In this document: in pieces, positions 734-17,195 of the stretch | Position numbering within the stretch: position 1 is the stretch's first letter | Layout of the letters: every line of letters begins with the position of its first letter | IMG/VR virus record: IMGVR_UViG_2541047944_000002 | Location: 1-44,087 of that record | Source of the DNA: a virus | Taxonomy: Duplodnaviria; Heunggongvirae; Uroviricota; Caudoviricetes | DNA length: 44,087 nucleotides | Direction: 5' to 3' (one strand) | Notes under the pieces: model-generated | The model's input: only the letters and a program-made list of their open reading frames with translations | Databases searched by the model: none | Told to the model about the DNA's origin: nothing | Translations under genes and position numbers: made by a program

Positions 734-1810
734 TCAGAGCAGTAAGTACGTTTTTTCTCTCTCATCAAGATACATTTTTGTTGTCTTCTCCGATGTGTGG
801 CCAAGTAGACGTTGAGCAAATTCTTCCCCACATGTTTCTTTGTACAATCGTCCAGCCAGGCTTCTGATCTCGTGAAAAGTTGGTGGGTTTTCACTGAACT
901 GGATACCTGTTAATTTTCTAGCTGCGACAAATTTTTTTGTCAGGCCGTCCGGGTGAATGCTGCCGTCAGGGCTGTTTTTTCTAATTCCGGCACTGATTAG
1001 ATAATCCCCCCGACTTACCATGCGGCACCGTTCAACTACTGCACCAAGCCGTAAACCAGCGACCGGAAGGCTGAGTGACAGGGGGATAGCAATCATCATT
1101 CCTGTCTTAATTTGCCTGATGTGGAGACGATCATCATAAATATCACTGAACCGCATATTCGTTATGTCTTCGCGACGTTGTCCTGTTACAAGGGCTAAGT
1201 CCATAGCTAATGGGAACCATGCCGGAAGTTGATCTGCTGCCTCCCTGATGCAGTTGTATGTCTTTAGTTTCAGCCGTTCTCTTGTAACTACTATTTTCGG
1301 TGCTCTTGTTGGCGTTACTGGATTTTGAGATATACGCCCTTCAACAATGGCTTCGCGGAACATATCAGATAACACAGAACGCATTGATCCTGCCATCGTG
1401 TTTTTCCCTCCTTCAATCCACAAATCAAGAAACTCGGCAATATGGCGAGTGGTTATTTCTGTCAGTAAGATCTCTCCTAATTTTTCTTTTATTGTTTCCA
1501 GTTGATTTCCCCGAATTTTATAAGTGTTTCTGGACACTTTTCTCCTTATAAGAATCGTTTTGTAACGTTCAATCCAGTCTGCCATAGTAAATGAGTCGAA
1601 CCCTTTAAGTTTTTCAATTAAGGCAGCAGGAGAGTAGTTTTTGTATATATAATGATTTGCTTCAATTGCCTGTGCGATTGCATCTCTTCTTGAAATTTTA
1701 CCTAGTGTAAATTCTTCTTTCGTCAGAGGGTTGCGCCAGTAATATGCTTTGTCCCTCCTTCGATATGTTAAGTTCCTAGGCAAATTGGGATCGTATTTTT
1801 TCCGCTGCAT
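734..1810 (-). CDS. int: Tyrosine site-specific integrase (lambda Int family)
   Basis: 358-aa ORF at the prophage end; C-terminal region resembles lambda Int catalytic domain ([15 protein letters not shown] motif as recalled); adjacent to att repeat. Confidence 0.9.
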
Positions 1811-2602: not shown

Positions 2603-3655
2603 TCAGGAGCCGATATATTCTGGTTTCATATCTGTCAGTGTCGTTTTATACGCCTCATATAATTCTCCCAGATGTGGTCGTGCAGCATTCAGCGTATTTT
2701 CCAGAGCAGTAAATTTTTGTTCTGCTTCCGGATCACCTGATGAAGGCAGGTCATTTATCATCTTCTCAATACGGGCAATAGCATTGAGACGGTGATGACG
2801 CTGAACCACTTTTCCTTTAAGTTCCGTATAGAGAGCGCCAAGTGTATTTTTATGCTCTTCCACTTCCTGCCGAAGTGCTGTTGTTTCTCCGGTGCTTTGT
2901 GCCTGCTCAATACGTTCACGGAAAGCACTGATCCAGTTTTCCCCGACATCCTGCTCAATAATTGTTGTTTCACGTTCCGCACGGCAGGCGGATGTGTTTT
3001 TATGTTCCTGAACCGGATTAATGATTTTTTCCTGTGGTTCGTCCAGTTCGTCCCGGGTGTACACTCCAAGAATCACTTCAGGGCAATAAAGGCGCGCCCA
3101 GCGTTTCAGTGCCAGATAGGCAAGCTGCTGACGAGGATCATCGGCCCATAACGTTGAGTTACGTGTTCTGGCCTGCGCCAGAAGTAACTCCAGTACGCGT
3201 GGTTTGCTCTCTCCGCGTAGTGTTGCCTGGACGCGAACTCCGATCCCGTTTTCATCGACCAGCTTCCAGCCAGGTACACGATATTCTTTCCCTTTGTCGT
3301 TCTTCCTGATTTCAAATTTCCCGATAATTTTTTCCCACGGCCCGAACCAGTCATATTCAATACGCCCGGTTAACGGCCCACGAGTACTGATTACGGCATT
3401 AACCAGTTGCGCTTCATATCCGAGTACACCATTCACAACGAAAGTTTTCTGAGCTACTGCGTAAGGGTTCATTTGCCACTGCATCGCCTGCATGGTGATG
3501 GCCATGCAGTCTGATGGATTTCCCCGGAGGTGTTCCGGTACAGTAGCCATGCCGGAAGCCATTACCTGAGAAAACGTCTGAATTGCAGCCAGAGACTGAG
3601 GGCTGAAAACCGCAACATTAGAGTTAATATTTTCTTGTTGAGTTAATTCGTTCAT
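2603..3655 (-). CDS. recT: RecT/Bet-family single-strand annealing recombinase
   Basis: 350-aa ORF with GGAGG-type RBS, directly downstream of the recE-like exonuclease in Rac-like order. Family call from synteny plus general resemblance, not a verified alignment. Confidence 0.6.
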   Translation of the reverse strand: MNELTQQENINSNVAVFSPQSLAAIQTFSQVMASGMATVPEHLRGNPSDCMAITMQAMQWQMNPYAVAQKTFVVNGVLGYEAQLVNAVISTRGPLTGRIEYDWFGPWEKIIGKFEIRKNDKGKEYRVPGWKLVDENGIGVRVQATLRGESKPRVLELLLAQARTRNSTLWADDPRQQLAYLALKRWARLYCPEVILGVYTRDELDEPQEKIINPVQEHKNTSACRAERETTIIEQDVGENWISAFRERIEQAQSTGETTALRQEVEEHKNTLGALYTELKGKVVQRHHRLNAIARIEKMINDLPSSGDPEAEQKFTALENTLNAARPHLGELYEAYKTTLTDMKPEYIGS

Positions 3656-3666
3656 TGTGTCCTTCC

Positions 3667-6600
3667 TCAGATGCTCAGTGCTTCAAGACGACGAAGATCA
3701 AAGTCGTTTAATTCGTCGGTATAACTTTCGGTAATCGGTGCTGGCCAGTTGTTTGTCTCCAGCGCTTCGTTTATCTGGTGTAGCGTCCGGCGATATTCCT
3801 GTCGACCAAGTTCAAGGAGTTCCTGCGAGGCTTCCACGACTGCCACCCAGTGATAGCCAGCATCTTTGTTGACGAAGATCCAGAAAAATTTGTCCAGGTT
3901 TGCCACATCGCAATACATTGCGGCGCTGAGGTGATAATCACGCTCAATAATTTCACGGTGCAGGCGATCTTTAAGTCGTTCCTGCCGCACATAACCGAGG
4001 CTGACTGACTTCACGTCAGCGCAAATGCTTTCGTATGGCAGCCGGATTTCGATATCAGGACGGACCCTGATTTCCAGCCCGGTTTCTTCATCAAACCCGA
4101 AATAGCTGATTTCAGATTTGCGATCCGGGTGGTTGAGTAGCCTTGCTGCATCGGTATTGTTTTGCAGTGCCGCGTGAATATTTTTTGCCTGTTCATACAT
4201 ATCCGGACTGATAAACGTTTTCCCGGCGTTTTCTTCTTGCTGGCGTTTTTGCCAGTCCTCCAGTGTCACCAGTTCCGGGCGAATTTTCCGTGCGATTTCG
4301 GTTAATTGCTCTTTTGTGCCACTGATGTTGTAAGGCAAAGATTTAGCACGTTCTTTTTTTGCCAGTTCTGGATCTACAGTTTCAATTTGATCCAGAAGCT
4401 GCTCCCGTGCTCCACTGGTTTTCAACAGAGGAGGGAGGCTTGCGTTGTATTCTTTAATACAGGCTTTCATTGCTGATGCTGTGTGTTTTTCCCCCTCAGG
4501 AATACGCCGAAATTCCACCGGAAGCGAACCGTAAAGGATGCCTGTTTCTTCGGCCCCAGCACTTACAGACAGTGGCTGTATAAGAGTGCTGTTGTAGCTT
4601 TCGATCCACTCTTTCATCTGCTCTGGTGTCATCAGTGCTGGCAGACTGGCATTGTGTTTTTTAATGATGGCGATCAGTTCGTTAGAAGTAGTAACCACAT
4701 ATTCAGGAACCGGTACCGGAATGGCATATTCATCAGCGAATTTATCCGTTTCCAGAACATAGCTGTGAATGATCCGCCCACGCAGCAGTGCATCACTTTC
4801 CTCGTTCGGAATAGTTCCGGCAATGTGCCGCCCGTGGTAATACATCAGGCTGATACGGGCATCCTTCAGCATCGTGCTGCTTATTCCGTTGGCGGAGTGA
4901 TAAACCTCGTTCGGGAGGTTTTCATAGCGGCCTGGCTCGAAATATGACGGCCACATGATTTCAGTTGCTACAGGAGCTGACGCTTCGCCAGTTTCATCAC
5001 TGCAATTGCGATGCGGATCGCTGTCAGCATTCTCATTGTGCGGATGTTCAGCGCCTTCCATTTTCTCCGGCTCATTTTCCCGAACTTCAACCTGATTCTC
5101 GTCATCGAATGTTTCCTGATATGTTGCGTCGCCCATCACCGCACCACAGTCAGGGCAGTTATCCCCGCCAGACTGACCGCAGGCATTGCAAACTTTTTCC
5201 ACTTCCTGTTGCGCCACTGGTTCAGGCTGTTTCGTTTCTGGCTCGTTTTGTAACGCATTTGGGCTGTTTTGTTCCGCTTTCTGGTCGTTCTGTTCCGATT
5301 CTTGTTGGTTCTGGTTCACTGAATCGCGGGTTTCAATCCCCTTCACCCATTTCGGATCATTCGGGTCGCTAATCCCCTCAACAAATTCTCCGCGAGAGGC
5401 AGCCAGCAATTTGTCGGCATCGACAGGATTTTTGGGCGGAATGGTTTTCCGGGCTTCATGAAGTTCTGCCCGCAGTTTCTGATATTTCGCATCAACAGAA
5501 TTTACCTGTGACTGAGCATCCAGCGGCTGCGTGTCCTGATGATGTTCAGTTGCATCCGGTTCCACTGTTTCAGCCGTTGCCTGTTCATCTGCCATTGCGC
5601 AAGATGGTTGCGGTTTTTCTTCATCATCCTGTTTTTCTTCTTCTGTTACCCGCTGCGGCATCGGGGCAGAGGAGCGACCGCAGGCAATATCCACGATTTC
5701 CGGATCAGGGTTGGCATGATCGGTTTCAGTCAGTACTTTGTTCAGATATTCAGTGACGTGTGCGGGGATAACCTCGATCCCAATTGGTGCTTCTTTTACG
5801 GACGCAACCACGATGGCGCGGGAATAATCCAGCCCGCCAGGCATGGCGATGAATTTGTCGCGGAAAACAGAAAAGGGCGGTTTATTTTCAGCGATAATTT
5901 CCTCGACACGTTTAGCGTGTGCCGGATGAAGGTTATAAATGTCCACGTCCATTGAACGGGCCAGTACGCCAGTGGCTACATCGCGTGCCAGTGACGTCAG
6001 ATCGTGGACGAAACCTTCGCCGCGATCGGTGAGGTTCCCGCCGCCAGCATTAGCACCGGAAGCCGTGCGAGTGATGCGTGAAACACGATTTCCTTTCATC
6101 CACTCTTTTGTCAGCAGACCGCGATCGGTGTAGTCTGCGTCCAGGTATGCTTCGAAAAAAGCAGTCATCAGCCCCAGACTTGAATTGCCTGGATTAGGGA
6201 AAACTTTGTCAGTATCACGAACCAGTCTGTGAAGATCGCGAATCTCCAGCAGGTCGAGCAGGCTGGTTTTGTGGGAAACAGCCAGGGCAGTAACAGCTGG
6301 TAGTTCTTCAGCCCGTGCAATATGTAATGTCTGGAGTTCGTCGCGTGAAACGTGCGTTACCGGTTTTTCGCTGCCGTGTTGAGCAAGCCAGCGAATGGGC
6401 AGCTCTTGGCCAGAAATCGGGAGTAGCATATTCTCCTCAATCTCAGTCATGTCTTCGCCATTAACATTGGTATTGTCAGTGCTGGCTGGTTTGTCCTGCG
6501 CAGAGGATGAGGGCGCGATAAATACCATTGTGATGCCATCTTCCCCGCCTTTTTCGTAACGGTTGCAGAATTCCGTATCAAATACGCCTTCTGGTGGAAG

Positions 6601-6813
6601 GTCATCAACAACGGGCAAATTGACGCGAACAGGTTTTTTAAAGTCATCTTCATCGTAGCCAGCATCGTCAATCGCAACAGCACCACGGGAGATGGCAATG
6701 GATAATTTTTTCGCTTCAGCCCAGTAGAAACCGCCTTTAATACCGAGACGTTTTCTTACTTTGTCATTTTTTGCTTCGTAATACAGTGGGTAAACTTGTT
6801 TATCGGTGCTCAT
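3667..6813 (-). CDS. recE: Exodeoxyribonuclease VIII (RecE)-like, enlarged 1048-aa form
   Basis: Long ORF upstream of recT-like gene; C-terminal nuclease region and Rac-like context; contains acidic low-complexity stretches and a Cys-rich segment ([16 protein letters not shown]). Confidence 0.65.
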
Positions 6814-8990: not shown

Positions 8991-9410
8991 TTACTCCGGT
9001 GGGGGATTATCTTTAAGCCTGCCTCTCAAATATTTTTCTACATACTCATCGATTTCTTTTAGCCGGACTTCAAATAGCTCAATCATTCGTTGTTGTTCTG
9101 AGCCCGGTAGCTGGTTAAACAACTCAAGAAGTTTTCGTTGGGATTCATTTAACCACAATTCAGAAGATTCCTGTTCTCCAAAGAGGAGCTCAGGGGGAGA
9201 TATGCCAAGTGCCTTTCCCAATACGACAGCGTCATGCACTCCAACATTTCTGCTGCCCGCCTCATAGTTACCTATACGCGATTGCGTCCATCCGCAGATT
9301 TCAGCAAGTTTTCCTTGAGATAAACCAAGCTTCTGCCTGCGCTCTTTAAGACGCATTGCAATTTTGTCATTGAGCCTACTAGCGGCAATTTTTTCGTTTT
9401 CTTTTTCCAT
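8991..9410 (-). CDS. Phage repressor, HTH XRE family (cI/RacR-like)
   Basis: HTH motif (LGLSQGKLAEICGWTQSRIGNYE); divergent from a Cro-like gene across an operator-bearing intergenic region. Confidence 0.8.
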   Translation of the reverse strand: MEKENEKIAASRLNDKIAMRLKERRQKLGLSQGKLAEICGWTQSRIGNYEAGSRNVGVHDAVVLGKALGISPPELLFGEQESSELWLNESQRKLLELFNQLPGSEQQRMIELFEVRLKEIDEYVEKYLRGRLKDNPPPE

Positions 9411-9506: not shown

Positions 9507-9749
9507 ATGAACAAAATTTCAACATATCGAAAACAGCTTGGGTTGTCTCAAAGACAACTCGCTGTTCAGTTAGGGTGGATACAAAGCCGACTGGCAAATT
9601 ACGAAGCAAATTTTCGTACCCCAGGACTAGAGGAGTGCAGAAAAATTGTTTCTACCCTTAATCGGCTTGGCGCTCATTGTGGACTTGACGATGTATTCCC
9701 CCCAGACGGTAAGCATAGCGAAAACAGCATAGGAGCGGTTGATTCATGA
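9507..9749 (+). CDS. Cro-like HTH regulator (YdaS-like)
   Basis: HTH motif (LGLSQRQLAVQLGWIQSRLANYE); GGAGG RBS; divergent from repressor. Confidence 0.7.
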   Translation: MNKISTYRKQLGLSQRQLAVQLGWIQSRLANYEANFRTPGLEECRKIVSTLNRLGAHCGLDDVFPPDGKHSENSIGAVDS

Positions 9750-10168
9750 AAATCAGGCATGAGCACATCGAATCAGTGCTGTTAGCCCTGGCAGCCGAAA
9801 AAGGGCAGGCGTGGGTCGCTAACGCAATTACTGAAGAATATCTCCGCCAGGGGGGAGGTGAATTGTCTCTGACACCAGGCAAGGACTGGAACAATCAGCA
9901 GAATATCTATCACCGTTGGTTGAAAGGTGAAACGAAAGCGCAAAGGGAAAAAATTCAGAAACTGATCCCTGCGGTTCTGGCAATTCTTCCGCGCGAGCTG
10001 CGTCACCGACTCTGCATCTTCGATACCCTGGAACGCCGTGCATTACTGGCGGCGCAGGAAGCGTTGAGTACGGCAATTGATGCGCATGATGATGCAGTCC
10101 AGGCCGTTTACCGGAAAGCACATTTCAGCGGTGGTGGGTCGCCCGGCGATTCTGTCGTAGTGCATTGA
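9746..10168 (+). CDS. YdaT-like protein (cII-position regulator / putative toxin family)
   Basis: 140-aa ORF translationally coupled to the Cro-like gene (ATGA overlap); recalled similarity to Rac YdaT. Confidence 0.55.
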   Translation: MKIRHEHIESVLLALAAEKGQAWVANAITEEYLRQGGGELSLTPGKDWNNQQNIYHRWLKGETKAQREKIQKLIPAVLAILPRELRHRLCIFDTLERRALLAAQEALSTAIDAHDDAVQAVYRKAHFSGGGSPGDSVVVH

Positions 10169-10245: not shown

Positions 10246-11034
10246 ATGGCTTCAAACTGGATAAAGCTCGAGGTTATTACGCCGGATAAGCCGGAAATAT
10301 TCAGGCTTGCTGAGATTCTGAATATTGATCCAGATGCCGCATTAGGGAAGGTTATTCGCTTCTGGGCATGGGCGGATCAACAAATGATAGACGGTAATGC
10401 AGATTGTAACGCTCGCGGCGTTACAAAAAGTGCAATAGACCGCATCACTTTTATGGCTGGTTTTGCTGATGCGTTAATTCAGGTTGGATGGCTGGTCGAA
10501 AATGACGGTGGGCTTTCTCTACCTAACTTTGAACGTCATAACGGAAAAAGCTCTAAAAAACGGGCGGTTACAAACGAGCGAGTTACAAAAATACGCGAAC
10601 TGAAACGAAAAGGTAACGCTGGCAGCGTTACACAAACGGATCAAAAAGCGTTACCAGAGGAAGAGGAAGAGGAAGATATAAATACTGATCTCCCCCTAAA
10701 TCCCCCTCGCCAAAAACGAGCGTCTAAAAAATTCGAGCCGGAGGCTATCGAGCTGCCTGACTGGTTGCCGGAAACACTCTGGCATGAGTGGGTTAAGTTC
10801 AGGCAGGCATTGCGAAAACCGATTCGAACGGAGCAGGGCGCTAACGGGGCGATACGGGAGCTGGAAAAATTCCGTCAGCAGGGTTTTACACCTGAGCAGG
10901 TGATTCGACACAGCATCGCCAATGAATACCAGGGCCTGTTCGCGCCGAAAGGTGTTCGGCCTGAGACGTTGCTCCGACAGGTTAACACTGTCTCGTTGCC
11001 GGACAGTGCGATCCCGCCAGGCTTCAGGGGGTAA
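10246..11034 (+). CDS. Replication initiator, lambda O-like / DUF1376 (YdaU-like)
   Basis: Position upstream of the DnaC-like loader; contains internal iteron repeats (see repeat feature). Confidence 0.6.
   Translation: MASNWIKLEVITPDKPEIFRLAEILNIDPDAALGKVIRFWAWADQQMIDGNADCNARGVTKSAIDRITFMAGFADALIQVGWLVENDGGLSLPNFERHNGKSSKKRAVTNERVTKIRELKRKGNAGSVTQTDQKALPEEEEEEDINTDLPLNPPRQKRASKKFEPEAIELPDWLPETLWHEWVKFRQALRKPIRTEQGANGAIRELEKFRQQGFTPEQVIRHSIANEYQGLFAPKGVRPETLLRQVNTVSLPDSAIPPGFRG
10405..10634. repeat. Putative replication origin iterons (GTAACGC-N5-GCGTTAC dyads and GTTACAAA repeats)
   Basis: tgtaacgctcgcggcgttaca (10405..10425), gttacaaa x2 (10567..10591), gtaacgctggcagcgttaca (10613..10632), plus one upstream copy at 10211..10231; followed by a GAA-rich then AT-rich stretch. 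Confidence 0.55.
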
Positions 11035-11040
11035 CGGACC

Positions 11041-11787
11041 ATGAAAAATATTGCGACAGGCGGCGTTCTGGAACGCATCCGCCGACTGACCCCGCCACAT
11101 GTAACCGCCCCATTCAGAACGGTAGCGGAGTGGCGCGAGTGGCAACTTGCTGAAGGCCAGAAACGTTGTGAGGAGATCAACCGTCAGAATCGTCAGTTGC
11201 GGGTGGAAAAAATTCTGAATCGTTCAGGCATCCAGCCGTTGCACCGTAAATGCTCATTTGCGAATTACCAGGTGCAGAACGACGGCCAGCGATACGCGTT
11301 AAGCCAGGCGAAATCCATCGCCGATGAACTGATGACCGGGTGTACAAATTTTGCGTTCAGCGGAAAACCTGGTACCGGGAAGAATCACTTAGCGGCAGCT
11401 ATCGGGAATCGCCTGCTGAAAGACGGTCAGACAGTGATTGTGGTTACCGTGGCTGATGTTATGAGCGCCCTGCACGCCAGCTATGACGACGGGCAGTCAG
11501 GCGAAAAATTTTTGCGGGAGCTGTGCGAAGTGGATCTGCTGGTTCTTGATGAAATTGGCATTCAGCGCGAGACGAAAAACGAGCAGGTGGTGCTGCACCA
11601 GATTGTTGATCGCCGGACAGCGTCGATGCGCAGCGTGGGGATGCTGACAAACCTGAACTATGAGGCCATGAAAACATTGCTCGGCGAGCGGATTATGGAT
11701 CGCATGACCATGAACGGCGGGCGATGGGTGAATTTTAACTGGGAGAGCTGGCGTCCGAATGTCGTCCAGCCAGGAATTGCGAAGTGA
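11041..11787 (+). CDS. DnaC-like helicase loader / IstB-like AAA+ ATPase (YdaV-like)
   Basis: Walker A ([15 protein letters not shown]) and Walker B (DLLVLDEIG) motifs; follows the initiator gene. Confidence 0.8.
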
Positions 11788-11809
11788 TTTTTACCGGGAG
11801 GAAATTTTA

Positions 11810-12571
11810 ATGGAGACTGTTTTTGACGCACTGAAAGCGATGGGAAAAGCCACGTCGGTAGAGCTGGCTGCGCGACTTGATATCAGTCGTGAAGAAGTAC
11901 TGAACGAGCTGTGGGAACTGAAAAAGGCTGGCTTCGTTGATAAAAGCGTATACACCTGGCGTGTGGCTGATAACAACGTTCAGCAGGAACAGCCAGCGCC
12001 AGAAGAACAGCCGGAAGAAACCACCACGGCGACAGTAGCGAAAATCTCAGAGTGCGATTTAACCGCGACGATTGAACAACGCGGACCACAAACGGCGGAT
12101 GAACTGGCTACGCTGTTCGGTACAACATCCCGCAAAGTGGCTTCAACGCTGGCAATGGCAATCAGCAAAGGTCGTCTGATTCGCGTAAATCAGGGCGGTA
12201 AATTTCGTTACTGCATACCGGGCGATAATTTACCAGCAGAGCCGAAAGCTGCATCGGTAGCGGAAACTGATGGTAAAGCCTTTCCTCAGCCTGCATGTGT
12301 TGCGTTACCAGTACAGGAGGCTGCAACACAGGAAGATATTAAAACAGAAACTGTGGCGGACATTGTGCAGTCGCTGCCATCGTTCACCGAAACGCGAGCG
12401 GATGACCTGATTTTACCATCGCTGCATATGGCAAACCGCGAACTGCGTCGGGCGAAAAGTCATGTCCAGAAGTGGGCGCGAGTCTGCGCCGCGCTGCGGG
12501 AGCTGAACAAGCACCGGGATATTGTTCGACAGATTACTGATTCTTCCCGCCGTGTTGTATCGGAAAAGTGA
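11810..12571 (+). CDS. Hypothetical protein with winged-helix-like repeats
   Basis: ORF from internal Met with GGGAGG RBS ([13 protein letters not shown]...); two related segments ([26 protein letters not shown] / [27 protein letters not shown]). Confidence 0.5.
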
Positions 12572-12586
12572 TTGCCGGAGGCACTT

Positions 12587-13009
12587 ATGGCAAAAGTATT
12601 TACACAAGAAGAGCGGGAAAAAATTAAAGGGCAGGTTGTTGAGCTAGTACGCCGGAGTGGGCGCGAGACGTTACGGCAACTGGAAGCCAAGACAGGTGCG
12701 ACAAGATATCTGATGAGCGTTCTCGCCAGAGAGCTTGTTGCCAGTGGCGATGTATATAACTCCGGCTACGGGTTATTCCCGTCAGAACAGGCTCGTAAGG
12801 ACTGGCAAAATGCCCGCAAAAAACTATCCAGGGCAAAGGTGAAGAAACCATCTGTGGTTGATCCTGACCTTATCTGGTCATTACCTGACGGAGAAATACG
12901 TCGCTACGACAGGAGTATGAACATAATCTGTCACGAGTGCCGGAAGAGTGAGGTTATGCAGCGTGTACTGGCTTTCTATCAGGGTAATTTTCAGGAGGCG
13001 GTACTGTGA
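12587..13009 (+). CDS. Hypothetical protein
   Basis: ORF with GGAGG RBS; no recognisable family. Confidence 0.5.
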   Translation: MAKVFTQEEREKIKGQVVELVRRSGRETLRQLEAKTGATRYLMSVLARELVASGDVYNSGYGLFPSEQARKDWQNARKKLSRAKVKKPSVVDPDLIWSLPDGEIRRYDRSMNIICHECRKSEVMQRVLAFYQGNFQEAVL

Positions 13010-13066
13010 GTGAAATTAGCTATCAGGCTTCAATTACCGCTGGCATTCGCATCAAAGGAGAGGAGC

Positions 13067-13423
13067 ATGGAAATAAAACCAGAAGATGAGTTAAGCAATA
13101 TCGTTTTATTTCCGGTAAAAGAGGATGACCCTCGTAATCAGGTTAATTTTCTTTATGAGCCATCGGAAAGACCATATTGCCATCACGCTTCTGTCCGGGT
13201 TGACGAAAAAGAGCGTCAGGTCCGCTGTAAAATCTGCGGTGCAGTTGTGGAGCCATTTGACTGGATGCTCTCTGTGGCGAAAAGAGAAACCAGACTGGCA
13301 GATGATGTAAGGCTATTGCGCCAGGAGGAACAGGAAAGACGGAAAAATATAGAAAAGTTAATTCAGATTGAGCGTAACGCGAAAGCGCGGATACGCAGGG
13401 TGACAAAATCCAGAACTGAATAA
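13067..13423 (+). CDS. Hypothetical protein with CxxC...CxxC zinc-ribbon-like motif
   Basis: ATG 5 nt after the conserved junction motif; CHHASVRV...CKICGAV. Confidence 0.5.
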   Translation: MEIKPEDELSNIVLFPVKEDDPRNQVNFLYEPSERPYCHHASVRVDEKERQVRCKICGAVVEPFDWMLSVAKRETRLADDVRLLRQEEQERRKNIEKLIQIERNAKARIRRVTKSRTE

Positions 13424-13518
13424 TTAAATTTAGCACTGTTAAAAATTCGATCCTTAACCGGAGGGATTTCTGCACCCTCAGAACATCAGGAGGCCGCCCG
13501 AAAGGGCGGTAACAAATA

Positions 13519-13995
13519 ATGCAAGAAATCAAAGAAAATATCAGGCAACAGCTTTACGGGTTTTATATTGCTTATGATTTGTGGCTGAAGAACGGGGCGA
13601 AACCCGGCGGAGTGTTTTCTCAAAATTATGGTTTATGCGCCAATCTTTTCGATTATCTCACATTAATTGGTACCCCCTGTGAGGCAGCGCTGGAGCAATT
13701 ACACGCTGATTTCAGAAGTGCCGGGCTGAATGAGGCGTTGCCGTTTAACGAGGGTAAAGAGCATTACCATGAAGAAAGAGGGCACAACATGTGCCATATG
13801 AATCCGGCACGAGTGGCGTGGGTCAGGGCGCAGACAGGGCAGCCAGCGCCGGAAGGACTGATTAAAGCGGTGCGTTTTTATGAGCAGGTAAAACGTGAGA
13901 ACCCGCCAGTCGAAACAGGAGCATGGAAAGACGCTGTTGACTGGGTGCTCAAAGAGGCTTGCCAGGCTGTAAACATTCGCATCAAAGGAGAGTGA
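13519..13995 (+). CDS. Hypothetical protein
   Basis: 158-aa ORF; unusual SD-hairpin-AUG leader; ends in IRIKGE encoded by the junction motif. Confidence 0.55.
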   Translation: MQEIKENIRQQLYGFYIAYDLWLKNGAKPGGVFSQNYGLCANLFDYLTLIGTPCEAALEQLHADFRSAGLNEALPFNEGKEHYHEERGHNMCHMNPARVAWVRAQTGQPAPEGLIKAVRFYEQVKRENPPVETGAWKDAVDWVLKEACQAVNIRIKGE

Positions 13996-13996
13996 G

Positions 13997-14489
13997 AATG
14001 CAAATTTCACCGGTTACTCTTCGTGTTGCGAAGGCGTTTATATCCAGACATCACCGACACAATAAACCCCCGGTGGGGCATAAATTCAGCATTGGTCTGA
14101 GAAATGATGCCGGAGAATTGATAGGTGTGGCGACAGCCGGTCGACCTGTTGCACGACATTTGGACGATGGATTAACGCTTGAAGTAAATCGCACATGTAC
14201 CACAGGAGAACGCAACGCTAACAGCGCGCTTTATGGTGCTGTCTGGCGGGCAGCAAAGGCTATGGGTTATCAACGTTGTATTACGTACACCCAGGCAGAT
14301 GAATCAGGAGCATCTCTTCGCGCAGCTGGTTTTGTTCGTGTGAAAGAGCTTCCTCCAAGAAAAAGCTGGGCGGAATCAAGCGTCGCCCTGCGGAGTAAAC
14401 GCGATCCGGTCGGAAACGGTGGTGTTCCTCGTGTGCTCTGGGAAATCAGGAGAATGAGTACCACTGGCATTCGCATCAAAGGAGAGTGA
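13997..14489 (+). CDS. Hypothetical protein, possibly GNAT-like acyltransferase fold
   Basis: ATG after junction motif; C-terminal half has a GNAT-like pattern (ALYGAVWRAAKAMGYQRCITYTQADESGASLRAAGFVRV). Weak, from memory. Confidence 0.45.
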
Positions 14490-14490
14490 T

Positions 14491-14754
14491 ATGGCAACTT
14501 TGACAAAAAAGGAACAGGCATGGTTGAGCGAATTACAGAACGTTCTTGATCGCTGCCCGTCACCGAAAAAAATTGGTTTTTACACCATTGGCGATAAAAA
14601 CATTTACCTGTATGACCTACGCCGCATGGATGAAATCATGGAGGCTCTTGATAATCGTTCGTCAATGGATTGGTGTGTTGCTGTCCATGATATGAATGCC
14701 GGATTTGAAGAAAAGATTTTGTTCCCCTCATCAGTTGAAAGCACTGCGGGTTAA
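14491..14754 (+). CDS. Hypothetical protein
   Basis: 87-aa ORF directly after the third junction-motif copy. Confidence 0.5.
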   Translation: MATLTKKEQAWLSELQNVLDRCPSPKKIGFYTIGDKNIYLYDLRRMDEIMEALDNRSSMDWCVAVHDMNAGFEEKILFPSSVESTAG

Positions 14755-14764
14755 GGAGTAACAC

Positions 14765-15589
14765 ATGACCAGTATTACCAAAGAACGTATTGAATTGTTC
14801 ATTAAAAATCCGCTTGAAAACGGGCTTGCCCGTGGCGAACAAATGGAACTGGCGCAGATTGCACTGGCCTCACTGGCAGCAGAGCCGGTGGCGTGGAAGG
14901 CAACCTTCACGCAAATTGACCATGAATATAATACGTTCACCGCTATGTATTCTGACAAAGCAGAAGTCGAACGGTGGGTGCGACTGCATAAAGTAGGTGA
15001 TTTTCGGGCAAAAATAACACCACTTTATGCATCATCGCCAGCGCTGGTAGTGCCTGATAAGTTGCCGCGTGAATACATAAGAGGTTGGCCTCTTGCGTAT
15101 AGTGATTATGCTGAAGGATGGAACGATTGCCGCGAAGCCATGCTTCAGTCAGGAAACTTTCGGGAAAACAAGGATTCGTCAACCAATAATTTTCGGGAAA
15201 TTTCGGAAACGTCAACCAACTCTCCGCTAATTCCTGGTGAAGTGTTGTCCGCAATCCGGGAGGTTGCCAGGATTCGTGCCGATTTCGATGATTTTGACGG
15301 TGACAGGCGAGGTGTTGGTGATTGTCTGGATGAGGCCGAGCAAGAGCTTATCGTTACCATTAACAAATATGCCAGTCAGTTGGCAGTAGAGCCGGTAGTA
15401 CCTGATGACGTTCTGGAACAGACAGTAGCGTCGCCAGTGCCAGGTAACCAGGTTAGCGAATTAACAATGTGGGTTAAGCGTCTGGCTCACTCCTTAAAGT
15501 ACGCCAATAGTTTAAGCAGCTTGCCTGATAAGGCGATGGAATATCTGAAGCAGAACGGGTTGGTAGGTGTGGAGGATATTTTACGATGA
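14765..15589 (+). CDS. Hypothetical protein
   Basis: 274-aa ORF with AAGGAG RBS; contains an internal imperfect tandem repeat (15158..15219). Confidence 0.55.
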   Translation: MTSITKERIELFIKNPLENGLARGEQMELAQIALASLAAEPVAWKATFTQIDHEYNTFTAMYSDKAEVERWVRLHKVGDFRAKITPLYASSPALVVPDKLPREYIRGWPLAYSDYAEGWNDCREAMLQSGNFRENKDSSTNNFREISETSTNSPLIPGEVLSAIREVARIRADFDDFDGDRRGVGDCLDEAEQELIVTINKYASQLAVEPVVPDDVLEQTVASPVPGNQVSELTMWVKRLAHSLKYANSLSSLPDKAMEYLKQNGLVGVEDILR

Positions 15590-15669
15590 CCTGGCCTGAA
15601 GCATTCGCAACGGTAGGAATGGTGATGGCGGTGGCGCTGGTGGTGTATTCGATTTGCCGCTGGGGATAA
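15586..15669 (+). CDS. Putative 27-aa hydrophobic peptide, translationally coupled
   Basis: ATGA overlap with the upstream stop; MTWPEAFATVGMVMAVALVVYSICRWG is one predicted transmembrane helix. Below ORF-track cutoff. Confidence 0.3.
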   Translation: MTWPEAFATVGMVMAVALVVYSICRWG

Positions 15670-15784
15670 AAACGGTTTGCGGGAAAAGGAGAGTTAAGTA
15701 GAATTGCTGCGGGTGCTTGAGGCTATCTGCCTCAGGCATGAACACCAAAAGGCAGATAGAGAAAAGCCCCAGTTAACATTACGC

Positions 15785-15850
15785 GTCCGGCAAGACGCTT
15801 AACATTAATCTGAGGCTCAATCTATGAACGGCAAATCTAGGTTAGCCTCT
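15785..15850 (-). ncRNA. sok: Putative Sok-like antisense RNA (approximate coordinates)
   Basis: Inferred from hok/mok organisation: antisense partner expected opposite the mok start/SD region; candidate minus-strand TTGCCT-17-TAACCT promoter just right of it. Not directly verifiable by eye. Confidence 0.3.
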
Positions 15851-16036
15851 TACGCGCCGAAAGGCAAGGAGAAGCAGGCTATGAAGCAGCAAAAGGCGAT
15901 GTTAGTCGCCCTGATCGTCATCTGTATTACCGTCATAGTGACGGCACTGGTAACGAGGAAAGACCTCTGCGAGGTACGAATCCGAACCGGCCAGACGGAG
16001 GTCGCTGTCTTCACAGCTTACGAACCTGAGGAGTAA
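15824..16036 (+). CDS. mok: Mok-like in-frame leader ORF of the hok locus
   Basis: 70-codon ORF sharing frame and stop with hok, as for mokC/hokC in K-12 (recalled). Confidence 0.5.
   Translation: MNGKSRLASYAPKGKEKQAMKQQKAMLVALIVICITVIVTALVTRKDLCEVRIRTGQTEVAVFTAYEPEE
15881..16036 (+). CDS. hok: Hok/Gef-family type I toxin
   Basis: MKQQKAMLVALIVICITVIVTALVTRKDLCEVRIRTGQTEVAVFTAYEPEE: 51 aa, single TM helix, near match to recalled HokC/Gef. Confidence 0.8.
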   Translation: MKQQKAMLVALIVICITVIVTALVTRKDLCEVRIRTGQTEVAVFTAYEPEE

Positions 16037-16106
16037 GAGACCCGGCGGGGGAGAAATCCCTCGCCACCTCTGATGTGTCAGGCATCCTCAACGCACCCGC
16101 ACTTAA

Positions 16107-16126
16107 CCCGCTTCGGCGGGTTTTTT
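16107..16126 (+). terminator. Intrinsic terminator of the hok transcript
   Basis: cccgc-ttcg-gcggg followed by tttttt. Confidence 0.6.
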
Positions 16127-16311
16127 GTTGCGCGCTGAATACGCAGGGTGAAAAATAACCATATATTTGATTATATACACAACAAAAAATAAAAGTCATT
16201 GCACCTGCACATTAAATAATCAAATATACGACGTGAAATAAATATTTTTCAGATTAATATTTTTGTCTCTATGTGGATATAACCGTTTGTACTTATAAAC
16301 CTGGAGGCATC

Positions 16312-16524
16312 GTGGAAAAAATAAAGAAACTATTTAGTAGCAAATATGCAGTCATACGTCGTGATGACCTGTCAGTTATAGTCGAAATGGATTACTTCCC
16401 TGAAACCAAAAAATCAATGATGTATCGTAATGGTCGAAAGGCAATTTTTTTACCGATGAGGGTAAGTGACATTATGGGAAATGATAAACTGCTGGATGAA
16501 TTGCGAGTCAGAGCATCCTGTTAG
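16312..16524 (+). CDS. Hypothetical small protein in an AT-rich island
   Basis: GTG start 5 nt after GGAGG; ~130 bp of AT-rich sequence upstream (16140..16270). Start codon uncertain. Confidence 0.4.
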   Translation: MEKIKKLFSSKYAVIRRDDLSVIVEMDYFPETKKSMMYRNGRKAIFLPMRVSDIMGNDKLLDELRVRASC

Positions 16525-16595: not shown

Positions 16596-17195
16596 ATGGC
16601 GCATATACAACTGGTCAAACAAACCTCTTCTGGATTACTTCTCCCGGCGACGCCGGAGAGTTGCGATTTTTTGCATCAAATCAAAATAGGTGAGTGGATA
16701 CACGCGGACTTTAAGCGAGTGCGTAACTACGCGTTCCACAAGCGTTTTTTCAAACTCCTGCAACTGGGATTCGATTACTGGACTCCGAACGGTGGGGCGA
16801 TCACGCCTCGCGAACGAGAACTGGTGTCCGGTTTCGTTGAGTATCTGTGCGAATCAGTTGGTCGGGAACACACTCCAGCCCTGAGCGAAGCCGCAGAGCA
16901 ATATCTGAATGCCGTTGCGACACGCAGAACCCGGGATACGGCATTGCTAAAGTCGTTTGACGCTTTCCGCGAGTGGGTAACCATTCAGGCAGGATTTTAC
17001 ACCGAGCATATTTATCCTGATGGTAGTCGTGGGCGCAGGGCAAAATCTATCGCATTTGCGAATATGGACGAAACCGAGTTTCAGCAGGTTTATAAAGCCG
17101 TACTGAATGTGCTGTGGAACTGGATCCTGTTCCGTAAATTCTCCTCTCCGGAGGAAGTCGAAAATGTGGCCGCGCAGCTGCTGGAGTTTGCGTAA
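16596..17195 (+). CDS. YbcN-like protein (DUF1367)
   Basis: 199-aa ORF recalled as resembling DLP12 YbcN; conserved position upstream of Q in lambdoid prophages. Confidence 0.6.
   Translation: MAHIQLVKQTSSGLLLPATPESCDFLHQIKIGEWIHADFKRVRNYAFHKRFFKLLQLGFDYWTPNGGAITPRERELVSGFVEYLCESVGREHTPALSEAAEQYLNAVATRRTRDTALLKSFDAFREWVTIQAGFYTEHIYPDGSRGRRAKSIAFANMDETEFQQVYKAVLNVLWNWILFRKFSSPEEVENVAAQLLEFA

Follow-up and report, generated by a model that had tools for sequence, protein, structure and literature searches.

We analysed a 44,087-nucleotide (nt) stretch of DNA (IMG/VR virus record IMGVR_UViG_2541047944_000002, positions 1 to 44,087; herein the window), whose gene content and order are those of a Rac-like lambdoid prophage of Escherichia coli. 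A 19-nt motif, CATTCGCATCAAAGGAGAG, matches exactly three times in the window, always on the plus strand (13044-13062, 13974-13992 and 14468-14486), with 0.01 matches expected by chance (100 shuffles); no fourth copy is found in the window, even at up to three mismatches. An earlier note made from the letters alone had placed a 23-nt sequence at 13040-13062 and 14464-14486 and a 21-nt sequence at 13972-13992, and these coordinates are right. All three copies lie inside a run of small accessory genes extending from 13067 to 15589, with the following open reading frames (ORFs) and motif copies.

12587-13009, plus strand: DUF977 / LygF (Ren-like) gene, left neighbour of motif copy 1
13006-13089, plus strand: putative relic "mini-ea22" ORF of 27 codons, VSEISYQASITAGIRIKGEEHGNKTRR*, with copy 1 in frame
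13036-13069, plus strand: copy 1, ACCGCTGG-CATTCGCATCAAAGGAGAG-GAGCATG, without a stop codon; Shine-Dalgarno (SD) sequence for ATG 13067
13067-13423, plus strand: zinc-ribbon protein gene (phrog_1621), the cassette 3′ of copy 1 (downstream cluster D0, see below)
13519-13995, plus strand: gene of 158 amino acids (aa), ending in copy 2
13972-14000, plus strand: copy 2, AA-CATTCGCATCAAAGGAGAG-TGAGAATG; encodes the NIRIKGE-stop of the 158-aa gene; SD for ATG 13998
13998-14489, plus strand: Mom-like / XF1762-family gene, 163 aa, a single-gene cassette between copies 2 and 3
14460-14493, plus strand: copy 3, ACCACTGG-CATTCGCATCAAAGGAGAG-TGATATG; encodes the TTGIRIKGE-stop of the Mom-like gene; SD for ATG 14491
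14491-14754, plus strand: 87-aa gene (phrog_1714), the cassette 3′ of copy 3
14765-15589, plus strand: 274-aa mosaic gene, end of the cassette array

Start codons follow the motif at 4, 5 and 4 nt (ATG 13067, 13998 and 14491). The previously given spacing of 4 to 5 nt holds, as do the starts at 13067 and 14491; the start after copy 2 is at 13998, not 13997. As had been noted, copies 2 and 3 encode the IRIKGE-stop of the gene upstream, the two ORFs ending in ...VNIRIKGE* and ...TTGIRIKGE*. AAGGAG lies 6 nt (copy 3) or 7 nt (copy 2) before the ATG, and copy 1 has GGAGAGGAGC in this place; a stop/start overlap, TGAnATG, is present in copy 3, the corresponding sequence of copy 2 is TGAGAATG, and copy 1 has no stop. 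Copies 1 and 3 have 27 nt in common with one mismatch (13036-13062 and 14460-14486), and copies 2 and 3 are identical over 22 nt, TGA included. A tandem duplication of one gene end with flanking protein homology, an origin that the earlier note had raised, is ruled out: identity among the copies is limited to 22-27 nt, and the two upstream proteins are alike only in the tail (BLASTP E = 0.2, 19 residues).

The predicted RNA fold energies of the three copies do not differ from those of shuffled sequences (z = +1.33, -0.45 and +0.15), and Rfam 15 gives no match at the motif within 12500-16500; matches with E ≤ 1 all fall at 15711-16126 (sok, a subthreshold isrK, and near-chance ceN48 and rsmX at E ~0.45). 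A structured RNA element or known RNA family is thus ruled out. The three copies themselves are free of promoter-like and terminator-like sites; a single terminator-like stem (14018-14034) begins 18 nt into the gene 3′ of copy 2.

Copy 1 sits in the 57-nt spacer between the LygF stop (13009) and ATG 13067. It had been described as lying in a different frame relative to its neighbours; the frame does differ from both, but it is not frameless, being that of mini-ea22. The GTG of this ORF overlaps the LygF TGA (GTGA), and the ORF runs 8 codons into the next gene. It consists of the conserved 5′ start of ead/ea22-like genes (VSEISYQA, 8 codons) fused to their 3′ end, AGIRIKGE, with the body missing. 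In the roughly 30 loci where mini-ea22 is found its residues vary freely, with many nonsynonymous variants, and this freedom suggests a relic rather than a selected peptide. The left and right context of copy 1 recurs in 20 IMG/VR junctions (flank clusters U1 and D0) among the matches listed in the scan described below. A longer zinc-ribbon ORF from GTG 13010, with copy 1 in the third frame, is unlikely to reflect the true start, because with another upstream gene this frame has a stop and no start codon. In some E. coli and Shigella genomes (L129, L135, L151 and L154) the GTG of window position 13010 is an ATG (ctgtgaATGaaattagc), which opens a 19-codon N-terminal extension of the zinc-ribbon protein and would translate copy 1 in the third frame (…LPLAFASKERS-MEIK…).

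The conserved 5′ start of ead/ea22-like genes, GTGAGCGAAATTAACTATCAGGCAC (VSEINYQAL; window 13006-13030; loci L045, L004, L170, L011 and others), has many different sequences on either side in full-length genes and looks like a second junction block. The P22 record L06296.1 (L250) annotates a 26-bp repeat at the eaD and eaF starts (CAGCCCAATGAGCAACATCGACAAAC, 4170-4195 and 4526-4551), which occupies the same position as GTGAGCGAAATTAACTATCAGGCAC and differs from it in sequence.

The Mom-like gene ending in copy 3 is not a member of the Ea22 family. Homologs in Pectobacterium, Mycobacterium, Burkholderia and other phages can be aligned with it only as far as residue 112-152 of 163 (149-152 for Pectobacterium, Mycobacterium and other phages). 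Outside enteric lambdoid phages no homolog has the last 11 residues, MSTTGIRIKGE, which were thus grafted on. The 158-aa protein ending in copy 2 has no Pfam match, and its final ~50 residues correspond to the C-terminal domain found in one Ead/Ea22-like variant (cluster U11). The N terminus of the 274-aa protein (MTSITKERIELF...) belongs to a family found elsewhere directly 3′ of the motif (downstream clusters D4 and D17).

Extent and Distribution of the Block

Comparison with related loci places the motif in a block of ~31-37 nt, (CGC)GCCGCTGG-CATTCGCATCAAAGGAGAG-TGA(T/G)ATG, which comprises the last 8-11 codons of ead/ea22-type genes, the SD sequence of the next gene and a stop/start overlap. 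Phage lambda carries the motif in the exo-xis region, where it forms the last part of ea22 (…HMMSDAGIRIKGE*) and lies between that gene and ea8.5. None of the three upstream ORFs of the window contains an Ead_Ea22 coiled-coil segment (...LALLDERERNQQYIKRRDQENEDIALTVGKL...); 11 of the 15 upstream flank clusters defined below contain it, and lambda ea22 itself has the motif at its end. The block thus comes from that family without being confined to it.

A 37-nt consensus of the block occurs at 6344 places in 3010 of 5426 complete E. coli genomes (median 2, maximum 11 per genome), mostly under "ead/Ea22-like family protein" annotations; 407 of these places are on plasmids. It is also present in 375 phage records (lambda, HK022, HK633, Stx phages, and Salmonella and P22-like phages among them), so the absence from related phages that the earlier note had allowed for is contradicted by its abundance there. 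The block and Ead-like genes are found as well in the P1-like phages P7, D6 and SJ46 and in plasmids of ~97 kb (e.g., L249, NZ_CP009051.1, 84197-84233); in P7 (L255, AF503408.1, 88982-89018) the block lies at upf88.3/upf89.0, 3′ of a C1 operator annotated Op(hea). The cassette pool is thus common to lambdoid and P1-type elements.

The AGIKVKGE* end of P22 EaD departs from the block by four synonymous and two conservative codon changes; an exact search for this P22-type block, a putative second allele in Salmonella phages, returns four loci with three different downstream starts, too few for flank analysis. Conservation at the nucleotide level, as proposed from the window alone, is supported by the comparisons below, but given the different codons of P22 EaD it is not purely so, and the tail and purine-rich end are therefore old features of the Ead/Ea22 family. 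Some junctions (from L176, L192 and related loci) have both edges of the block and differ in the middle: one reads CGCGCCGCT-ATGCTTCAGGGG-AAAGGAGAGTGAT (…AAMLQGKGE*) and another GCCGCTGGCATCAAGGAGGAGTCTGAGTGA (…AAGIKEESE*).

Flank Combinations, Breakpoints and Indel Variants

An exact scan of IMG/VR for the 19-nt motif gave at least 120 loci, of which 114 junctions had enough flank; in these the motif has the same position as in the three window copies. The results on these junctions apply to the matches listed. The flanks fall into at least 15 upstream and at least 19 downstream clusters that are mutually nonhomologous, and these occur in at least 48 combinations, forming at least 40 complete rectangles in which two upstream and two downstream clusters are seen in all four pairings (U1D1, U1D2, U2D1 and U2D2). 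When each cluster is represented by a single sequence, conservation reaches 80-94% in GCTGG and at six of the seven TGAnATG positions, and outside (gcc)GCTGG-CATTCGCATCAAAGGAGAG-TGA(t/g)ATG it is near random on both sides; in most of the 19 downstream clusters the core is followed by TGAnATG. The upstream ORFs are mostly mosaics of Ead/Ea22-like type, which have the coiled-coil segment in common, vary in their N- and C-terminal domains, and each terminate in (A)AGIRIKGE. Where two junctions have just one flank in common, homology ends 1-13 nt 5′ and mostly 0-10 nt 3′ of the core, leaving a common block of 22-40 nt.

A second sample of 79 loci was picked solely by the 87-aa protein and not by the motif. 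The core, with no or one mismatch, lies directly upstream of the 87-aa gene in 65 of these loci, and one further locus keeps only the AAAGGAGAGTGAT end. The 65 motif-bearing junctions represent 11 nonhomologous upstream flank groups (15 groups across all 79 loci). The identity of 87-aa genes behind different upstream genes (median 96.2%) is close to that behind the same gene (97.0%), and in 99 pairs with different genes upstream the two copies are 100% identical over 264 nt. At a few percent divergence, therefore, linkage no longer persists across the block.

Insertion and deletion variants have their joints within the block. Locus L173 and the window are collinear over 10857-13062 and once more from 14461 onward, the two alignments overlapping by 26 nt in the motif; L173 corresponds to the window minus the three genes between copies 1 and 3, the structure that would be expected from exchange between these copies. 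Seven other loci (L187, L199, L227, L232, L234, L238 and L239) have a copy-2-type left flank, a single motif and the 87-aa gene, and no Mom-like gene. When the fetched loci are aligned to the window by BLAST, alignment ends pile up at the copies (25 starts at copy 1, 25 ends at copy 2 and 80 starts at copy 3). The suggestion that the motif is a recombination sequence at module junctions is supported by these flank combinations, edge breakpoints and indel joints, and the search that the earlier note had proposed in phages and prophages, for mosaic breakpoints and for alternative genes attached to the motif, finds both: homology breaks at the block edges, and the flanking genes of relatives are many and nonhomologous.

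Alignment ends of related loci also cluster at ~13500-13540 and ~13840, further mosaic breakpoints that carry no motif. The latter lies inside the 158-aa gene, at the point where the Ea22-variant C-terminal domain begins.

Proposed Homologous Exchange and Its Alternatives

The anatomy of the block, its combinatorial flanks, the breakpoints, the indel joints inside it and the loss of linkage across it are direct observations. From their pattern we infer an origin by homologous recombination at the block and not by selection alone, and likewise which recombinase may have acted. The block would be a portable gene-end and ribosome-binding-site (RBS) unit that provides a short homology patch at which general homologous recombination swaps, inserts and deletes accessory gene cassettes among temperate phages of enteric bacteria, a reading to which we assign a probability of about 0.7. 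As the block ends many unrelated genes and precedes many unrelated genes, it would form a short, perfect patch of homology; recombination there would join different cassettes between coresident phages and prophages, and direct copies in one genome would allow cassettes to be inserted or deleted between them. The 3′ half would be kept in addition by its translational job, supplying SD sequence and coupling for the downstream gene, and the 5′ half would be the old Ea22 C-terminal tail travelling with the block. Crossovers at the block would account for the natural variants with joints inside it.

The enzyme would likely be a phage annealase (RecET, Red or Erf type) or the RecA of the host. The window encodes RecT and RecE, lambda encodes Red, and phage Kapi1 encodes RecT; by analogy with Rad52-like phage recombinases, whose action at short homologies was shown to generate mosaics (PMC3945230), the RecT/RecE system of the prophage may carry out exchange at the block. 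Minimal efficient pairing segments are quoted as 23-27 bp for Red-beta and 31-34 bp for RecA (PMC3945230), and a minimal pairing length of about 30 bp is given elsewhere (PMC2327257). The block, at 22-40 nt, fits these values; the exact repeats within the window, only 22-23 nt, stand at the lower limit. In lambda and Kapi1 the leftward early operon holds the same cassettes, which lie 3′ of the replication genes in the window and in phage 689R5.

Several points weigh against exchange by homologous recombination. The IMG/VR sample was picked by exact match to the motif and cannot measure motif conservation. Some flank pairs are strongly linked, with U1 found only with D0 among the matches listed. 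In 13 of the 79 loci picked by the 87-aa protein a different junction (…NPYKEN*) lies 5′ of the 87-aa gene, so the 5′ half is not obligatory. Rare illegitimate joins that keep the downstream RBS region, followed by vertical spread, could explain part of the pattern. The AGIKVKGE* end of P22 EaD suggests some selection on the peptide or on purine-rich RNA, beyond homogenisation by recombination.

The block might instead be mainly a translation element (SD sequence, spacing, stop/start coupling and perhaps an unstructured region for ribosome landing), with recombination incidental. We regard this as unlikely for the block as a whole, although the 3′ half reads clearly as a functional element, a strong SD with stop/start coupling. 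The position of AAGGAG in copies 2 and 3 and the TGAnATG that follows the core in most downstream clusters are as such an element would have them, and the block covers roughly -34 to +3 relative to the start codon. Alternative junctions 5′ of the same 87-aa gene still have AAGGA...TGATATG, and in the P22 version, AAGGGGGAATGAGCATG, most differences are exchanges between A and G, which leave the purine run intact. However, the alternative junction (…AATCCGTATAAGGAAAACTGATATG) of the 13 loci mentioned above lacks the 5′ half, GCTGGCATTCGCATC, and the 87-aa gene therefore does not need it. Lambda keeps the block though no start codon follows (TGAGATCGG), the copies have neither a common RNA fold nor an Rfam match, and translation alone leaves the identical third-codon positions across unrelated upstream genes unexplained. 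The shared translational element or RBS that the earlier note had offered as its other possibility thus stands for the 3′ half (AAGGAG followed by TGAnATG) and fails for the 5′ half, which the downstream gene can dispense with.

Conservation for the sake of the protein is less probable still. Under this explanation (A)GIRIKGE would be a functional tag (a partner-binding, degradation or assembly signal) and the nucleotide identity would reflect recent common descent. The P22 EaD tail, encoded by different codons (ATC AAG GTT AAG GGG GAA) with conservative R-to-K and I-to-V changes, speaks for a tag, as do the presence of the tail on 33 of 37 distinct Ead/Ea22-like 3′ ends in our partly biased sample of loci and the (K/R)GE end of all Ea22 proteins compared by Dydecka et al. 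2020 (PMC7093339). Yet copy 1 and its ~30 relatives lie in a 27-codon relic whose other residues are free to vary, the commonest variants in the E. coli pool are nonconservative (R to G, G to D) with synonymous ones rare, and the tail is grafted on a Mom-like enzyme whose homologs elsewhere do without it. In the structure determined by NMR for the C-terminal domain of lambda Ea22 the secondary-structure elements listed end with a helix (PMC10834534); the tail lies beyond this last element, which by our reading would place it outside the fold. The KGE codons, AAR GGN GAR, are themselves an SD sequence, so this part of the tail has an explanation at the RNA level.

A dedicated site-specific system (integron-like, a homing-type capture or an RNA-processing enzyme) that targets the block is the least probable explanation by far. 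It would be in keeping with single genes between direct copies, present or absent in relatives, and with up to 11 copies per E. coli genome. Against it, neither an inverted repeat nor a hairpin is present in the block, its neighbours do not consistently include a dedicated recombinase or nuclease, and the only integrase in the window is the prophage Int (734-1810), 11 kb away. The extent of the common block also varies from pair to pair of junctions (5′ breaks at 1-13 nt, 3′ breaks mostly at 0-10 nt), as would be the case if exchange could happen anywhere in the common homology rather than at one fixed site.

A bolder version of exchange at a homology patch is conceivable, and we offer it as speculation that is more doubtful than not. 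The GTGAGCGAAATTAACTATCAGGCAC 5′ start and the 3′ block would together form a selected, integrase-free exchange platform, whose homology arms of annealase size would capture, exchange and move accessory genes between operons and among lambda-like, P22-like and P1-like phages; mini-ea22 would be an empty docking site, and direct copies might release single-gene circles, as the promoter-early stem-loops (PeSLs) of T4-type phages do.

Relation to Known Systems and the Surrounding Prophage

Conserved "boundary sequences" of lambdoid phages have been proposed as recombination foci (Susskind & Botstein 1978; Clark et al. 2001 for HK620, both as cited in PMC3029335), and most mosaic boundaries are said to show no detectable linker of this kind (PMC3029335). 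Like boundary sequences, the present block is short, conserved, situated at gene or module boundaries and surrounded by alternative nonhomologous modules, and it is a proposed focus of recombination. Unlike them, it is part coding (the last 8-11 codons) and part RBS, is repeated within one genome, separates single accessory genes and is also found in P1-like phages. The literature searched contains no description of the block as a junction, the seven boundary sequences of Clark et al. 2001 being outside this comparison. We therefore regard the block as a clean further case of a known idea, conserved linkers as foci of recombination, and not as a new mechanism.

The closest functional analogue is provided by the PeSLs (Arbiol et al. 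2010, PMC2839356; Comeau et al. 2014, PMC4122927). Both are small expression signals between nonessential genes in plastic regions, offering homology for modular shuffling, insertion, deletion and replacement; unlike a PeSL, which combines a promoter with a terminator stem-loop, the block combines a gene end with an RBS and has no significant fold. A promoter/terminator cassette of the PeSL type is ruled out here, as none of the three copies carries a consensus site. Integron attC elements are likewise repeated between single-gene cassettes, but they are imperfect palindromes served by a dedicated integrase, whereas the block has neither symmetry nor a dedicated recombinase; the inverted repeat and adjacent recombinase of an attC or other site-specific site are absent here, there being no significant fold and no integrase but Int. 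In polymorphic toxin loci, conserved motifs (VENN of CdiA, the ends of Rhs cores) bracket variable C-terminal modules and allow them to be swapped through homologous recombination. The Ea22-like coiled-coil segment and the 3′ block bracket a variable C-terminal domain in the same manner; unlike those loci, there is no toxin/immunity logic, and the block stands at the very end of the gene and reaches the start of the next.

At the protein level the same feature is known as the "+GE" C-terminal tripeptide of Ea22 proteins, "significance unknown" (Dydecka et al. 2020, PMC7093339). Our analysis places it in a 31-37-nt block, identifies KGE with the downstream SD sequence, and finds the block at the ends of non-Ea22 genes and of the relic ORF as well. 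Because K-G-E is encoded by AAR-GGN-GAR, "+GE" is most simply taken as the SD sequence of the next gene read as protein.

Undetectable linkers had favoured illegitimate recombination followed by selection as the main route to mosaicism, and against this background the block is an unusually clean and abundant positive case, in which the sequence itself reveals reassorted flanks, precise joints of indels and lost linkage. It also provides a concrete substrate for testing homology-driven exchange in the exo-xis/ea region, which influences the lysis-lysogeny decision of Stx phages. For annotation, the block carries a warning: "ead/Ea22-like" labels and C-terminal similarity may stem from the grafted tail of ~10 codons.

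A scan of one genome per species for the exact 19-nt motif returned 46 contigs from very diverse "species". Broad taxonomic spread is ruled out, since about 35 of the 46 are phage lambda DNA with identical ea22 flanks (contamination); 4 of the 46 are chance matches with unrelated flanks, where by our arithmetic ~4 are expected in 596 Gb. The true hosts are Escherichia, Shigella and Shimwellia together with two contigs of gut metagenome-assembled genomes, and Salmonella by way of the phage collection. Lambda DNA was found in assemblies of Streptococcus equinus ATCC 9812, Prevotella pallens, several Streptomyces and Piscirickettsia salmonis, and as three contigs of ~48.4-48.5 kb in Shewanella canadensis and two Pseudomonas assemblies; contamination or spike-in is most likely for lambda DNA in such unrelated assemblies. 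"Campylobacter phage CJLB-4" (MW057783.1, 48,361 bp) has 100% identity to lambda over the 619 nt compared.

The remaining features of the prophage map are as follows.

734-1810, minus strand: integrase, lambda-type Int
2603-3655, minus strand: RecT, with RecE the single-strand-annealing recombination system of the prophage
3667-6813, minus strand: RecE / exonuclease VIII
8991-9410, minus strand: helix-turn-helix (HTH) repressor-like gene
9746-10168, plus strand: YdaT
11041-11787, plus strand: DnaC-like loader
11759-12571, plus strand: DUF1627 / YdaW
15711-16036, plus strand: hok/sok
16596-17195, plus strand: DUF1367

The hok/sok toxin-antitoxin system directly follows the cassette array (Rfam sok, 112.8 bits, 15711-15886; Hok/Gef-family ORF, 15824-16036). 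Beyond it, a match to the Hfq-binding small RNA isrK (16045-16126; 30.5 bits, short of the gathering score, 50; E = 6.5e-4) has a terminator-like hairpin (16105-16122) at its end. A further hairpin, CCGCCC-GAAA-GGGCGG (13494-13509), with no T-run after it, lies between AGGAGG and ATG 13519. Within the 274-aa ORF, a 33-nt tandem repeat (78% identity, 15155-15219) encodes NFRENKDSSTN and NFREISETSTN.

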